The notes beneath the pieces were generated by a model. It saw only the letters and a list, made by a program, of their open reading frames with translations, was not told the DNA's origin and made no database searches. This document shows positions 2 through 4,384 of a stretch of 4,384 nt of DNA, piece by piece. Both the position numbers and the translations under genes were made by a program. How positions within the stretch are numbered: the stretch's first letter is position 1; every line of letters begins with the position of its first letter. This DNA is from Candidatus Aenigmatarchaeota archaeon (GTDB lineage: Archaea > Aenigmatarchaeota > Aenigmatarchaeia > Aenigmatarchaeales > JACQIB01): contig JBHIDR010000046.1 in assembly GCA_046760225.1 (NCBI GenBank), positions 1 to 4,384 of the forward strand. Direction: 5' to 3'.

Positions 2-217
2 GTGAGGAAAGCCGTTATAACGTCTCCCCAGAGGAGAATCGACCTTGCATTAAGGCTGATAACACAGGGGAGCTACCAGAAGTCCCATGGAAAGGGAAAG
101 AAGATGGAAGAGGCACTGGCAAACGAACTCATTGCATGCTATGATTATGATTCTTCAAAATCCACTGCAATAAGGGAAAAGGAAAGAATAGAAAGAGAGG
201 CTGCGGGAGCAAGGTAA
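2..217 (+). CDS. rpsG: 30S ribosomal protein uS7, C-terminal part (5' truncated by the window edge)
   Basis: Translation ..KAVITSPQRRIDLALRLITQG..EEALANELI..AIREKERIEREAAGAR* matches the archaeal uS7 C-terminus (SPxRRxDLALR; K/ExERxAxxAR). It lies upstream of EF-2, as in str operons. Stop TAA 215-217. Confidence 0.93.
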   Translation: MRKAVITSPQRRIDLALRLITQGSYQKSHGKGKKMEEALANELIACYDYDSSKSTAIREKERIEREAAGAR

Positions 218-279: not shown

Positions 280-516
280 ATGGCAGAAAAAGTAGAATTC
301 CAGACAATCAAAGCAGAAGAAACAAAGTTCGGAACCAACAACTTTATAGAGGTTGCAAGAAAGAAGGCAATATCCGAGAGAGGTGAGAACGAGTTTATCT
401 CTGTTTCCAGGGGGTTCTTTGCACCCGATGGAACAAAGCGTTTCACCAAGAGCATTGCAATTCCTGTGGAAGTTGTTGATTTCGTTGCAGAGAAACTGAA
501 GGTTGTCAAGGAGTAA
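280..516 (+). CDS. Small hypothetical protein (78 aa); possibly a PC4/Whirly-like nucleic-acid-binding fold
   Basis: ATG with SD and upstream TATA box, co-oriented with the operon, protein-like composition. Alternating beta-strand patterns (NFIEVARK, EFISVSRGFF, RFTKSIAIP) are followed by an amphipathic C-terminal helix (VEVVDFVAEKLK). The fold call is inference only. Confidence 0.8.
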   Translation: MAEKVEFQTIKAEETKFGTNNFIEVARKKAISERGENEFISVSRGFFAPDGTKRFTKSIAIPVEVVDFVAEKLKVVKE

Positions 517-586: not shown

Positions 587-592
587 AGGAGG
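587..592 (+). promoter_or_regulatory. Shine-Dalgarno site AGGAGG for EF-2 (ATG 600)
   Basis: Strong SD 7 nt upstream of ATG 600-602, which opens an EF-2-like N-terminus. Confidence 0.8.
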
Positions 593-599
593 ATGAAAA

Positions 600-3500
600 A
601 TGGTAGCAAAGGAAGAATATTCCGAGAAAGTGCAGGCTCTAATGAGCAACCCCAAGAACATCCGCAACATAGGCATTGTTTCGCATAACTTCTTCAGTTG
701 TGGTTGAGAAGTGCGAAAATACATCATGGAAAATGCATATCCAAGGATGCCCGCATTATGATAGATGACGGGAGACTTATAGCTGCTAAGGATATTTTCA
801 AACAACTTTCTCCGCTAGGTAGACCCATCAAGAATAGTGATAATGAGGTTGTTTATGACGTGAGTAAGTGCGGCCTGAGGGTGCTCTCGCTTAATAAAAA
901 CAATATGAAACTAGAAAGCAAAGAGATACGTCTCATTTGGAAGCTTAAGACCTCCGAAGAGCTTTTCAATGTGGAGCTTGACAGCGGATTATCTGTAGCA
1001 ACGACACCTGAGCACTTATTTTTGACGTTCGATGGTAAGGACATCAAAGAAGTTCCCGCAGAACATCTTAGGGAAGGACAATTCATCATATGTGCAAGGA
1101 CTGTGAACTATAATCCTGCTTCCATTGAGGAAATGAAGAGGGAGATTATGTTAAAACTCTCCGGACGACAGGAATTTATAGTCAAGTTGAATGATATCTT
1201 CGCATCTGAGATAAAGAGCAGAATAATGGATATCGGGATAGAAGAAGTATGGAAGAGTATAGCCACACATTATAAGAAAAAGGACTTTTATTCATCATGC
1301 ATCTATCATGGGAGATACAGATTAAGGGACATCGTGGCTTTGTGCAAGTACTTCGAAGTAGGCCTTGACAGGCTCTATGACTCCATTGAGAATATTGCTT
1401 ATAGAAAAAGCTTGAAGAAACACGGTAAGCTATCAACAAGGATGAAACTTCCGAAAAGTGAAAAGGGCTTTTCTGAGCTGCTTTATGCGATAGGACTCAT
1501 ATTCGGGGATGGCTGCAGGACATTTATAACAAATAATAATGAACATTTGCAGAAAAGATTCTTGTATATAATGAAAATGTTAGGCTTTAGGCCAACAGTT
1601 GAAAAGAGAGCCAACAGGGCAACCAATGTTCTAAGCAACGGTGGAATGACATTCTTAAACTTCATGATAGAAGTGTTTGATTATCCCATAAAAGATAAGA
1701 CGAAGAGCATAAGAATATCAGAGTTCATAGAAATGCTGGATAAAAGATTCATAGCAAGTTTTCTGCGCGGCTATTTTGACGCGGACGGTACAATTGAAAG
1801 AGGAAGGAGCGCCATTTCGATTACTTCCATGAGCAATAGAATGCTGAAAGACCTGCAACTGTTATTATTGAGATTCGGTTGCCAGTCAACCTTGAACAAG
1901 GACACCCTATACATATCAGGTCAGTCTGCAAGGATGTTTGCGTATAGGATAGGTTTTTCAACTGATGGCAAGATTTCGAGAATGAACAAGCTCGTGGGAA
2001 AGGCAAAATCCTCGAAGAATACGGATGTCGTGCCAGTTGATGCATCGTTGCTCTCATTTGCTGGATCTAGATTCAGGGGATATAAGGTAGGAGATTTAAC
2101 GGCCACGTCCTTTTCGTTGCAAAGTATGACTGAGGGCATAGAGTATGTTCCTTCAACTATAAAAAAAATAATGGACGGTGACGTGAGTTTTGTTAAGGTC
2201 AAGTCCATAGAGAGAACAAGGGAAAATGAAGTATTTGATTTTACAATCCCAGATAATCATAACTTTATTGCTGAAGGAATGATTATACATAATACTTGCC
2301 TCACGGACAACCTGGCCGCCGCGGCAGGGATGATGGCAAGGGACCTTGTTGGAGAAAGGATGCTCACATGGATCGACGAACAGGAAAGAGAGCGGCTCAT
2401 GACAATCTACGGTGCAACAGTAACAATGGCGCACGAATATGAGGGTGAGAAGTACCTCATCAACCTTCTGGATACTCCTGGCCATGTTGATTTTGGCGCA
2501 GACGTTACGCAGGCTATGCGTGCTGTTGATGGAGGAGTGGTTCTGGTCTGCGCTGTTGAGGGAATAATGCCACAGACAGAGACAGTGCTAAAGCAGGCAC
2601 TGGCTGAAAGGGTAAAGCCTGTTCTTTTTATCAACAAGGTGGACAGGGCAATAAAGGAACTGAAGCTCACGCCCGAGGCGCTCCAGAAAAGGCTAGCTAG
2701 GATAGTAGTCAATGTCAACAAATTTATCCAGCGTCATGTTGAAGAACAGTACAGGGACAAGTGGGTGGTAAAAGTAGAGGACGGCTCTGTTGCATTCGGC
2801 TCTGCACTGAGGAAGTGGGCAATATCAATTCCTGCTATGAAGAAGTTCAATGTAACTTTCAAGGACATCATAGAACTATGCGCTGCTGGCAAGGATGAAG
2901 AGCTGGCAAACAGGGCACCAATGAACATTGTTGTCATGGACATGGTTGTGAAGCACCTTCCTGCTCCAACAGAAGCGCAAAGGTACAGGATAGAGAAGGT
3001 ATGGAAAGGTGATCCAGAGAGTGAAGTGGGCAAGCAGCTAATGAGCTGCGATCCCGATGGGAAGCTGGCTGCTGCGATAACAAAGGTTGTTTATGACCCC
3101 CATGCAGGCATGATTTCAACTGCAAGGATATTCTCAGGAAAACTGAGAAAAGGGGAGACAGTATACCTGCATGACCTGGGAAGGCAGGCCAAGATACAGC
3201 AGGTAACAACCTTCATAGCAGACAAGAGAATACCTGTTGAGGTCACTCCTGCTGGAAACATTGTGGGACTGGTGGGGCTGACAGAAGCAATTGTAGGAGA
3301 GACAATGTGCGACCCTGAGTTCATTATCGAGCCCTTTGAAGCAATAACACATATATTCGAGCCTGTTGTCACAAAGGCAATCGAGCCCAAGAGCCCGCAG
3401 GACCTGCCAAAGCTCATAGACATCCTCAAGACACTCAACAGGGAGGACCCCACACTCAGGATAAAAATAAACCCTGAGACAGGAGAGACACTTGTCTCAG

Positions 3501-4378
3501 GCCTGGGAGAGCTCCATCTTGATGCCAAGGTAGAGAGGAAGATAAAGGAAAAGGGAATTGAGATCCATGCATCCCCGCCCATAGTTGTTTACAGGGAAAC
3601 AGTCACGGGCGAGAGCCCTGAGATAGAGGGAAAGAGCCCGAACAAGCACAACAGGTTCTATATCTCTGTTGAGCCCATGCCAGCTGAAATCTACAGGGCA
3701 ATGATGGAGGGTGTGATAAAGGACGCTGATATAAAGGGAAAGAAGGTTGAGATACTAAAAGAGCTTGAAAAGGTTGGCATGAGCAGGGACGATGCAAAGA
3801 ACACAAAGATTATTCATAATCACTGCATTTTCATTGATGACACAAAGGGAATACAGTACCTGAACGAGGCAATGGAACTGATAAAGGACGCTTTCAAGAG
3901 GGCGGTGGACGAGGGACCGCAGGCAAAGGAGCCCTGTGCAGCAATCATAGTGAGGCTGACTGATGCTTCCCTGCACGAGGATGCTGTGCACAGGGGGCCT
4001 GCGCAGGTGATGCCTGCTGTAAGGATTGCAATACATGAGGCAATGCTGAAAGGAGGCACAGGCATGCTGGAACCAAAGCAGATATTGAGAATAGACACGC
4101 CGCAGGACTACATAGGAAATGTCTCAGGCGAGGTGAACAACAGGAGAGGGGAGATAATGAACATAGAGCAGGAGGAATTCTCTTCTGTTCTTACTGTGAA
4201 GCTGCCTGTTGCAGAAATGTTCGGGTTTGAGGGACAGCTGAAGAGCGCAACAGGAGGAAAAGGTTTCCAGTCGCTAATGGATGTTGTGTTCGAGAAGGTG
4301 CCAAAGGACCTTGTGCCGCAGGTAGTTGGCAGGATAAGGGACAGGAAGGGCCTTCCAAGGGAACTTACAAGGGTGTGA
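600..4378 (+). CDS. fusA: Archaeal elongation factor EF-2, join(600..686,719..4378); 1248-aa precursor containing a 520-aa intein; mature protein 728 aa
   Basis: Exon 1 encodes MVAKEEYSEKVQALMSNPKNIRNIGIVSH (EF-2 IRNIGI motif). G1 continues IHHGK/TCLTDNL. Also present: G3 LINLLDTPGHVDFG, G4 FINKVD, G5 AFGSA, domain III EDPTL..SGLGELHL, PIVVYRETV, KSPNKHNRF, diphthamide loop LHEDAVHRGPAQ, and C-terminal RRGEI..PVAEMFGF..LKSATGG..IRDRKGL. Stop TGA 4376-4378. Confidence 0.96.
687..718 (+). other. Putative 32-nt BHB (tRNA-endonuclease-type) intron in the EF-2 mRNA
   Basis: Removing 687-718 joins TCG CAT to ATA CAT CAT GGA AAA (S-H-I-H-H-G-K), restoring frame and P-loop. Predicted fold: central 4-bp helix UCGC 681-684/GCGA 713-716, 3-nt bulges AUA 685-687 and AAA 717-719, intron stem ACUUCU 688-693/AGAAGU 707-712. 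Cutting after the 2nd nt of each bulge gives 686^687 and 718^719. Confidence 0.85.
734..2293 (+). mobile_element. Intein (520 aa) with LAGLIDADG homing endonuclease, inserted in EF-2 G1 between Lys and Thr
   Basis: Block A CISKDARIMIDDG (Cys1 at 734), block B TTPEHLF (from 1001), block C LLYAIGLIFGDG (1478-1513), block E FLRGYFDADG (1760-1789), block F VFDFTIPDNHNFIAEG, block G IIHN ending at 2293, +1 Thr at 2294. Excision yields HHGK-TCLTDNL. Confidence 0.96.
3971..4006 (+). other. EF-2 domain IV diphthamide loop (LHEDAVHRGPAQ); target His codon 3989-3991
   Basis: The HRG motif characteristic of archaeal/eukaryotic EF-2 is intact; this distinguishes it from bacterial EF-G. Confidence 0.85.
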
Positions 4379-4384
4379 GACAGT

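Follow-up and report, generated by a model that had tools for sequence, protein, structure and literature searches.

The EF-2 gene and its frame break

The window, i.e., the whole stretch of DNA analysed here, is the entire 4384-nt contig C46 of a bin of Candidatus Aenigmatarchaeota (DPANN) that comprises 851 kb in 83 contigs and is 83% complete (G000 below; other G numbers are genomes of relatives and L numbers are loci). It holds the end of rps7, a 78-codon open reading frame (ORF), a GGAGG motif and the gene for archaeal elongation factor 2 (aEF-2, encoded by fusA; EF-2 below), which runs from the ATG at position 600 to a stop codon at 4376-4378. This gene is interrupted at two points, by 32 nucleotides (nt) at 687-718 and by an intein at 734-2293. 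The shorter interruption is our main subject, and the sequence evidence makes it very likely that 687-718 represents an intron of the bulge-helix-bulge (BHB) type inside the EF-2 pre-mRNA's coding sequence.

A preliminary description of this DNA had placed the start and the body of EF-2 in different frames, separated by 32 nt with a TGA at 705-707, and translation reproduced this. The frame from ATG 600 counts 35 codons and is closed by that TGA inside the putative intron; an unspliced message would give just a 35-residue peptide. The EF-2 body frame is open from 689 to 4378 and forms a downstream frame of 1220 codons, intein included, without a stop. Deleting 687-718, or the equivalent 688-719, had been said to restore the conserved peptide by fusing IVSH to IHHGK. 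When all deletions of 12-69 nt around the site were tried by script, just these two, each of 32 nt, regained it.

The bulge-helix-bulge motif and its register

The splicing endonuclease EndA cleaves between the second and third bulge residues, according to PMC2738675. Applied to the motif at this site, the rule removes 687-718, one of the two restoring deletions, in agreement with the boundaries that had been claimed from it. Six BHB-shaped candidates occur in the region, and one of them coincides exactly with a peptide-restoring deletion. Such patterns are hit at a rate of ~1e-4 per position and length, and with two admissible registers the probability that the register agrees by chance at this one site is roughly 2e-4.

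Every part of the structure that had been described is present, namely the UCGC/GCGA helix, the AUA and AAA bulges, the intron hairpin and a weak outer stem. The central helix consists of four Watson-Crick pairs, with pair probabilities of 0.84-0.89 in the Boltzmann ensemble, and is flanked, as in a BHB, by two 3-nt bulges on opposite strands. The intron helix (6 + 4 bp) has pair probabilities of 0.42-0.84 in the same ensemble. The motif is relaxed on its outer (exon) side.

Intron-less alleles and introns at the same site in relatives

EF-2 was searched for in 41 genomes of the same order, 40 of which were positive, and a class-wide protein search of 371 genomes gave a match in 343. Order-wide, the first 120 residues were searched in 42 genomes and proved uninterrupted in 30, split by short inserts in 8 and by an intein only in one (G008), with no usable match in 3. 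An uninterrupted I-[VIL]-[SA]-H-[IV]-HHGK, which is the product predicted after splicing and intein removal, is read in 26 of the 29 relatives' loci, so that the intron-less fusA alleles which the preliminary description had proposed to look for do show the predicted joint. One of the genomes, from the same genus, is 95% identical over the first 120 residues and carries neither intron nor intein.

Inserts of 31 nt stand at exactly this site, in phase 0, in G005, from the same family, and in G027, from a different one. A covariance model from three sequences, run on a sample of 151 genomes of the class, added a fourth same-site intron of 32 nt in G233, a member of another order. Central helix and bulges are conserved, and the hairpin varies by compensation. 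In the unbiased MAFFT alignment of the window, G005 and G027, the central helix is invariant, five of the 10 hairpin pairs are altered on both sides and 100% of the hairpin cells are paired; the covariation score was matched by 1 of 500 shuffles, and slid controls pair in 33-52%. In the same alignment 75% of the cells of the outer helix are paired, with G-U in place of U-U in two relatives. Compensatory stem changes, named beforehand as something that relatives might reveal, are found here and also in a six-sequence alignment, where 8 pairs are altered on both sides and 0 of 500 shuffles match the score, the six rows having been fitted to the model, two of them with a shifted site, which biases this result towards the structure.

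Exon and intron also vary together. In G233, GCG (Ala) replaces the exon codon UCG (Ser), and in the intron the partner base changes from A to U, which keeps the first pair of the central helix, as G-U for U-A. Moreover, the six alleles whose intron lies here or 1 nt downstream all have NCGCAU, compared with 1 of the 26 intron-less alleles, although these counts are not independent, the genomes being kin. The Ser/Ala-His codons vary freely in intron-less alleles.

The G005 bin holds two versions of EF-2, an intron-bearing allele (L015, contig C2) and an intron-less one (L042, contig C8, 3370-3564); the latter is an N-terminal fragment at a contig end, 86-89% identical to L015. They derive from two strains or species that were binned together.

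DNA support, copy number and splicing enzymes

Four DNA runs of one study (hydrothermal-vent metagenomes) carry the stretch. The site is covered from 450 to 1000 by unbroken contigs in X1, X2 and X3 and from 450 to 742 by a contig of X4, and in all four the insert is unchanged, with no indel and no joint, which speaks for its reality in the DNA and answers the concern, raised beforehand, that it might be an assembly artefact. The X1 and X4 contigs have single-nucleotide polymorphisms (SNPs) at 523 and 542, indicating another strain; one of the four runs may be the window's own source. A second intact fusA combined with decay of this copy had been named as a finding that would speak against an intron. 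A search of the 83%-complete genome turned up no second EF-2, and the downstream frame is stop-free.

Both enzymes that BHB splicing calls for, EndA and the ligase RtcB, are encoded by the organism. Two adjacent EndA paralogues (PF01974 hits above cut-off, each with an N and a C domain) lie on G000 C2 at 22790-23281 and 23747-24355 (L005 1297-1788 and 2254-2862). The 202-codon ORF has 3iey_A, a 154-residue endonuclease chain, as its best match and retains the His in the REH-KW stretch. In the 163-codon ORF, Gly takes the position of the 1a79_A His. We take the His in question to be the catalytic His of EndA, and the pair is read, from these sequences, as a putative catalytic alpha and structural beta subunit. 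The two genes are 0.5 kb apart, with a nitroreductase-like ORF between them. RtcB is encoded as well (496.8 bits), by a gene that is itself split by two inserts. Introns were predicted by aragorn in 13 of the 21 tRNAs, although some of these calls look doubtful.

Other short inserts that follow the cut rule

Thirteen short inserts were tested by script for a canonical BHB (4-bp helix, 3-nt bulges, inner helix of at least 5 bp): 10 in EF-2 of nine genomes, two in rtcB and one in a porA-like gene (Table 1). In 12 of the 13, the canonical BHB cut equals one of the few restoring deletions, and the inner helices found measure 5-12 bp. Three of the EF-2 inserts (G024, G038 and the second site of G027; 33, 33 and 30 nt) contain in-frame stops and obey the rule all the same. 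The G021 and G024 introns, shifted by 1 nt relative to the window's site, have the helix CGCA/UGCG with bulges UAU and UUU; either intron sliding or independent gain would account for the shift.

Further interrupted genes, for which the preliminary description had suggested a scan, are present in this genome: rtcB with its two inserts, both of which obey the cut rule, and the gene with the porA-like insert (helix CCGC/GCGG, bulges AAU and AAA), whose identity was judged by eye from a motif. The ab initio filters of a genome-wide search stayed at background level, as detailed below. A narrow signature (5' bulge A[AU][AU], 3' bulge AAA, 22-45 nt) was slightly above background, with 4 hits versus 1 for an inner helix of at least 7 bp. 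We also observed a 24-nt in-frame candidate on G000 C2 (H starts at 44499, + strand), with TGCA/TGCA, bulges AUA and AAA and a 7-bp stem, inside a long ORF.

The intein and its neighbourhood

In the EF-2 P-loop, the intein separates GK from T and begins 15 nt past the putative intron. An intein is defined by a nucleophile at position 1, His-Asn at its end and a nucleophile at position +1. Here, Cys (734-736) comes first, His-Asn (2288-2293) comes last and Thr (2294-2296) occupies +1, in frame with the host gene, and Pfam recognises a splicing domain (Intein_splicing, 9.5e-29) and an endonuclease domain (LAGLIDADG_3, 3.5e-16); in splicing domain, terminal residues and frame it is therefore an intein. 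Relatives read HHGK-T without a break at this point, and in G008 (L041), which lacks the intron, an intein occupies the same position.

An EF-2 N-terminus is available from 39 genomes of the order, and across these, four of the six EF-2 short-insert sites lie within 15 nt upstream of the intein point. In mature-mRNA numbering these inserts follow nt 87, 88, 98 and 101, two of the sites being just 1 nt apart, and the intein follows nt 102. This clustering may reflect sequence conservation, a link to the homing endonuclease or intron sliding. That mini-introns are gained or kept preferentially at the P-loop homing site of the intein is an idea that we put forward tentatively and consider rather unlikely. 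If it were true, an intron in the DNA would break the recognition sequence of the endonuclease and might confer immunity against intein invasion, or, alternatively, introns might arise during repair of the endonuclease's cut. The introns would then gain a selective reason and a mechanism of origin, and Aenigmatarchaeota would use the tRNA-splicing enzymes as a general mRNA-splicing system in which intron gain is ongoing.

At six Aenigmatarchaeota loci (L050, L052, L053, L055, L057 and L066), the C-extein match extends over 2516-2820 nt compared with ~2080 nt, which suggests further insertions (inteins or introns) in the gene body.

Layout of the window

The GGAGG upstream speaks for the ATG at 600 as the true start. 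Exon 1 matches the N-terminal 29-30 residues of relatives' EF-2 at 87-100% identity. The C-extein is stop-free, is 71-83% identical to the full-length EF-2 matches of relatives, and contains GTP_EFTU, EF-G_D2, EFG_III, EFG_IV and EFG_C, all above the Pfam cut-off. DNA 72% identical to the ORF at 280-516 was found on G000 contig C9 (19740-19893). Furthermore, window positions 4327-4380 equal positions 1-54 of G000 contig C44 (54 nt identical), which continues with an EF-1alpha-like gene; C46 and C44 probably adjoin, in the order rps7-fusA-tuf.

Table 1. Coordinates of the features in the window and of the short inserts in other genes and genomes.
Feature	Location	Positions	Strand	Length or content	Basis
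Ribosomal protein S7, 3' end of gene	window	2-214			Pfam
ORF between rps7 and fusA	window	280-516		78 codons, no Pfam family	
Shine-Dalgarno-like GGAGG	window	588-592	+	7 nt ahead of ATG 600	direct sequence reading
EF-2 exon 1	window	600-686	+	29 codons, C-terminal NIGIVSH	translation
Outer exon-exon helix, 5' strand	window	677-679	+	pairs with 721-723 beyond the U680-U720 mismatch	
Central helix, 5' strand	window	681-684	+	UCGC, in exon 1, Ser-His codons	
5' bulge	window	685-687	+	AUA; predicted cut 686/687	
Putative BHB intron	window	687-718	+	32 nt	frame restoration, motif, DNA-run contigs
Intron hairpin	window	688-712	+	helix 688-693/707-712, bulged U694, helix 695-698/703-706, loop 699-702	
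Central helix, 3' strand	window	713-716	+	GCGA, in intron	
3' bulge	window	717-719	+	AAA; predicted cut 718/719	
EF-2 exon 2, first five codons	window	719-733	+	IHHGK, end of N-extein	
Intein	window	734-2293	+	520 codons, LAGLIDADG homing-endonuclease domain	Pfam
EF-2 C-extein	window	2294-4378	+	694 codons and stop codon	Pfam
EF-2 insert, 1 nt downstream of the window's site	G021 (L038)	181-212		32 nt	
EF-2 insert, 1 nt downstream of the window's site	G024 (L039)	170-202		33 nt	
EF-2 insert at HHG/K	G038 (L022)			33 nt	
EF-2 insert at GK/T, second in the genome	G027 (L031)	~1471-1500		30 nt	
EF-2 insert at WID-x/Q	G020 (L024)			32 nt	
EF-2 insert at GHVD/FGAD	G023 (L040)			29 nt	
rtcB insert 1, in HEGY/GFPIGG	G000 C35	about 1544-1573	+	30 nt, in frame	
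rtcB insert 2, within GGIGY/DINCG	G000 C35	about 1646-1677	+	32 nt	
porA-like 2-oxoacid:ferredoxin oxidoreductase insert at PITPQ/TEI	G000 C39	3279-3309	-	31 nt	

Proposed pathway

We propose that, in the EF-2 pre-mRNA, exon nt 681-684 would pair with intron nt 713-716 to form the 4-bp helix between the two 3-nt bulges, stacked on the 10-bp hairpin of the intron. EndA, assembled from the paralogue with and the paralogue without the catalytic His, would cut at 686/687 and 718/719. RtcB would join the exons, and the intron would probably be circularised. The chemistry of the ends in such splicing is established (PMC4090602). The joined message would encode a 1248-residue precursor, and once the LAGLIDADG intein had excised itself, EF-2, 728 residues long, would be left with its P-loop intact. 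That the RNA is cut and ligated in vivo, that the intron is circularised and that the protein is spliced are all inferred here from sequence, and the cell very probably has to splice RNA first and protein afterwards to obtain EF-2. The intron itself most likely serves no function; it would be an element that is tolerated, selfish or neutral and that has to be removed.

Points for and against a spliced intron, and rival explanations

The reading as a BHB intron is favoured because of the exact product, the register, the homologous introns, the co-variation of exon and intron, the generality of the pattern, the DNA support and the presence of the machinery. The earlier proposal that this lineage splices the mRNA of a translation factor with its tRNA machinery is in this way supported by register, relatives, DNA, enzymes and further genes, excision being the step that we infer.

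Several observations weigh against it. The outer stem, of 3 bp after a U-U mismatch, is weak (pair probabilities 0.21-0.27); the minimum-free-energy fold of 670-730 differs from the BHB (-12.7 versus -9.3 kcal/mol); and the stretch is not unusually stable (z = -0.88), as 31 of 200 shuffles fold equally well or better. Genome-wide, the loose BHB pattern occurs at chance level, with 6850 hits versus 6846 in the reversed genome. An ORF-merging filter in the genome-wide intron search gave no separation (true 5971, shifted 5855-5955), and a codon-usage filter likewise failed to separate introns from background. One insert, that of G020, showed no canonical BHB, either by eye or by script. The covariation is drawn from few, related sequences, and the six-row alignment carries the bias mentioned above. 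The search of sequencing runs for the stretch found it in no RNA run. At 83% completeness the genome could have an intact fusA that was left unassembled, and an RtcB gene interrupted twice means that the pathway needs pre-existing ligase. Because folding energy does not single out the BHB, the case rests on the register and on comparison.

A dead or dying copy, disabled by the 32 nt, with functional EF-2 made from another locus or by intron-less cells, is quite improbable. A second copy could be unassembled at this completeness, rare variants drop out of contigs, and the G005 bin does combine an intron-bearing allele with an intron-less fragment 86-89% identical to it. Against this, the search found no second EF-2, the 1220-codon frame is free of stops with every EF-2 domain above its Pfam cut-off, and the insert is identical in four assemblies, strain variants included. 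Moreover, the same-site inserts of three other genomes keep their structure by compensation, unlike decay, and 12 of 13 inserts stand in exact cut-rule register. The short 4384-nt contig of a fragmented 83-contig bin could also raise suspicion of an assembly or sequencing artefact, the 32 nt being absent from the organism's DNA; with contigs of four runs covering the site without indel or joint, X1 and X4 with SNPs of another strain, we give this explanation next to no chance, even if all four runs stem from one study and one of them is possibly the source of the window.

The remaining explanations concern translation. In phage T4 gene 60, ribosomes hop from a take-off codon to a matching landing codon, and the take-off codon is followed by a stop. 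Here the two frames overlap at 689-705, the insert is flanked by CAU codons (at 684-686 before it, at 722-724 and 725-727 after it), and a hairpin follows the take-off site, as would suit recoding by a -1 frameshift within 689-705 or by a hop from CAU 684-686 to a downstream CAU. A frameshift would add ~10 foreign residues to the P-loop, though, and landing on CAU 722 or 725 would drop residues of the invariant SHIHHGK, whose spacing is kept in 26 of 26 uninterrupted alleles. CAU 684-686 is followed by AAC and not by a stop codon, no slippery heptamer was seen, and the inserts of G024, G038 and the second site of G027, multiples of three with in-frame stops, are beyond rescue by frameshifting. 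Recoding is very improbable on these grounds, and a bypass site of the gene 60 type was rejected for its wrong product and the lack of a stop after take-off. We judge highly improbable that the locus makes two unjoined products, the 35-residue peptide and a truncated EF-2 starting at TTG 698 or later: both frames are listed as separate ORFs, but in the truncated body the first strand would be missing together with half of the P-loop, its Pfam GTP_EFTU match starts at profile position 17, no ribosome-binding motif precedes 698, and exon 1 resembles the N-terminus of uninterrupted relatives (87-100% identity). Group I and group II introns are far longer than 32 nt, and the insert, being far too short, was ruled out as either.

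Relation to known BHB introns

An intron in the cbf5 pre-mRNA of Crenarchaeota was reportedly described by Watanabe in 2002 and by Yoshinari in 2006. The cbf5 pre-mRNA of Crenarchaeota has a BHB intron whose splicing was shown by complementary DNA (cDNA) (PMC2738675), and Yokobori et al. 2009 tie the hetero-oligomeric EndA to the origin of this mRNA intron (PMC2738675). As in cbf5, the EF-2 insert is short, lies in a coding sequence, has a BHB-like structure for EndA with the cut between bulge residues 2 and 3, belongs to a host with a hetero-oligomeric EndA and is patchily distributed among relatives. The two differ in that the EF-2 insert interrupts P-loop codons in a DPANN lineage, has a near-canonical motif on the intron side and shares its gene with an intein. 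The present case also involves several introns per genome (rtcB twice, porA-like) and several EF-2 sites among relatives. Splicing of cbf5 is shown by cDNA, whereas that of EF-2 is predicted from DNA.

A BHB intron in the 5' untranslated region (5' UTR) of the HVO_1309 mRNA of Haloferax volcanii was confirmed in vivo and in vitro (PMC7714728), and cbf5 is given in the accessible part of that 2020 paper as the sole additional BHB intron reported until its 5'-UTR case. There, too, an mRNA is the substrate of the archaeal splicing endonuclease, but the intron lies in an untranslated leader, whereas here codons are interrupted and removal is needed for the protein. With the canonical hBHBh' introns known from pre-tRNA and pre-rRNA in archaea (Marck and Grosjean 2003, as cited in PMC5829648), the EF-2 insert has in common the two 3-nt bulges, the 4-bp helix between them and the same enzymes; it differs in that the host is a messenger and the outer helix consists of codons and is weak. 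In the eukaryotic splicing of HAC1/XBP1 mRNA, IRE1 cuts and Trl1 or RtcB ligates (PMC4090602). A protein endonuclease likewise removes a small intron from a coding mRNA there, a tRNA ligase joins the ends and the frame changes; IRE1 and its motif are different, and that system is regulatory, whereas no evidence of regulation was found here.

In the accessible parts of PMC5829648 (2018) and PMC12397907 (2025), the pre-mRNA citations are three cbf5 papers alone, and in that of a 2026 review of non-canonical splicing (PMC13149111) archaeal BHB is mentioned for tRNA alone. BHB introns in EF-2 or in protein-coding genes of DPANN archaea found no description in the full-text literature searched, subscription journals and supplements excepted. 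That BHB introns are rare in mRNA, with cbf5 as the classic case, had been stated in the preliminary description, and our literature search agrees, finding only cbf5 (coding) and the Haloferax 5'-UTR intron in the texts accessible. In this searchable literature, BHB splicing within an archaeal protein-coding sequence is in print for just one other gene, cbf5.

Biological significance

An essential and universally conserved translation factor would, on our reading of 687-718 as a BHB intron, not be makeable without the tRNA-splicing enzymes. If this is confirmed, mRNA splicing would belong to routine gene expression throughout an archaeal lineage, and the synthesis of EF-2 would need two kinds of splicing, of RNA and of protein. 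There would also be a bootstrap dependency, with RtcB required to make RtcB, because rtcB itself carries two BHB inserts. In DPANN genomes, core genes would systematically be called as truncated or "pseudo" by gene callers, and such miscalls would lower completeness estimates and distort marker-gene phylogenies. With several insert sites in one gene and close relatives that are intron-less, EF-2 of the Aenigmatarchaeota would moreover be a good system for studying the gain and loss of BHB introns.

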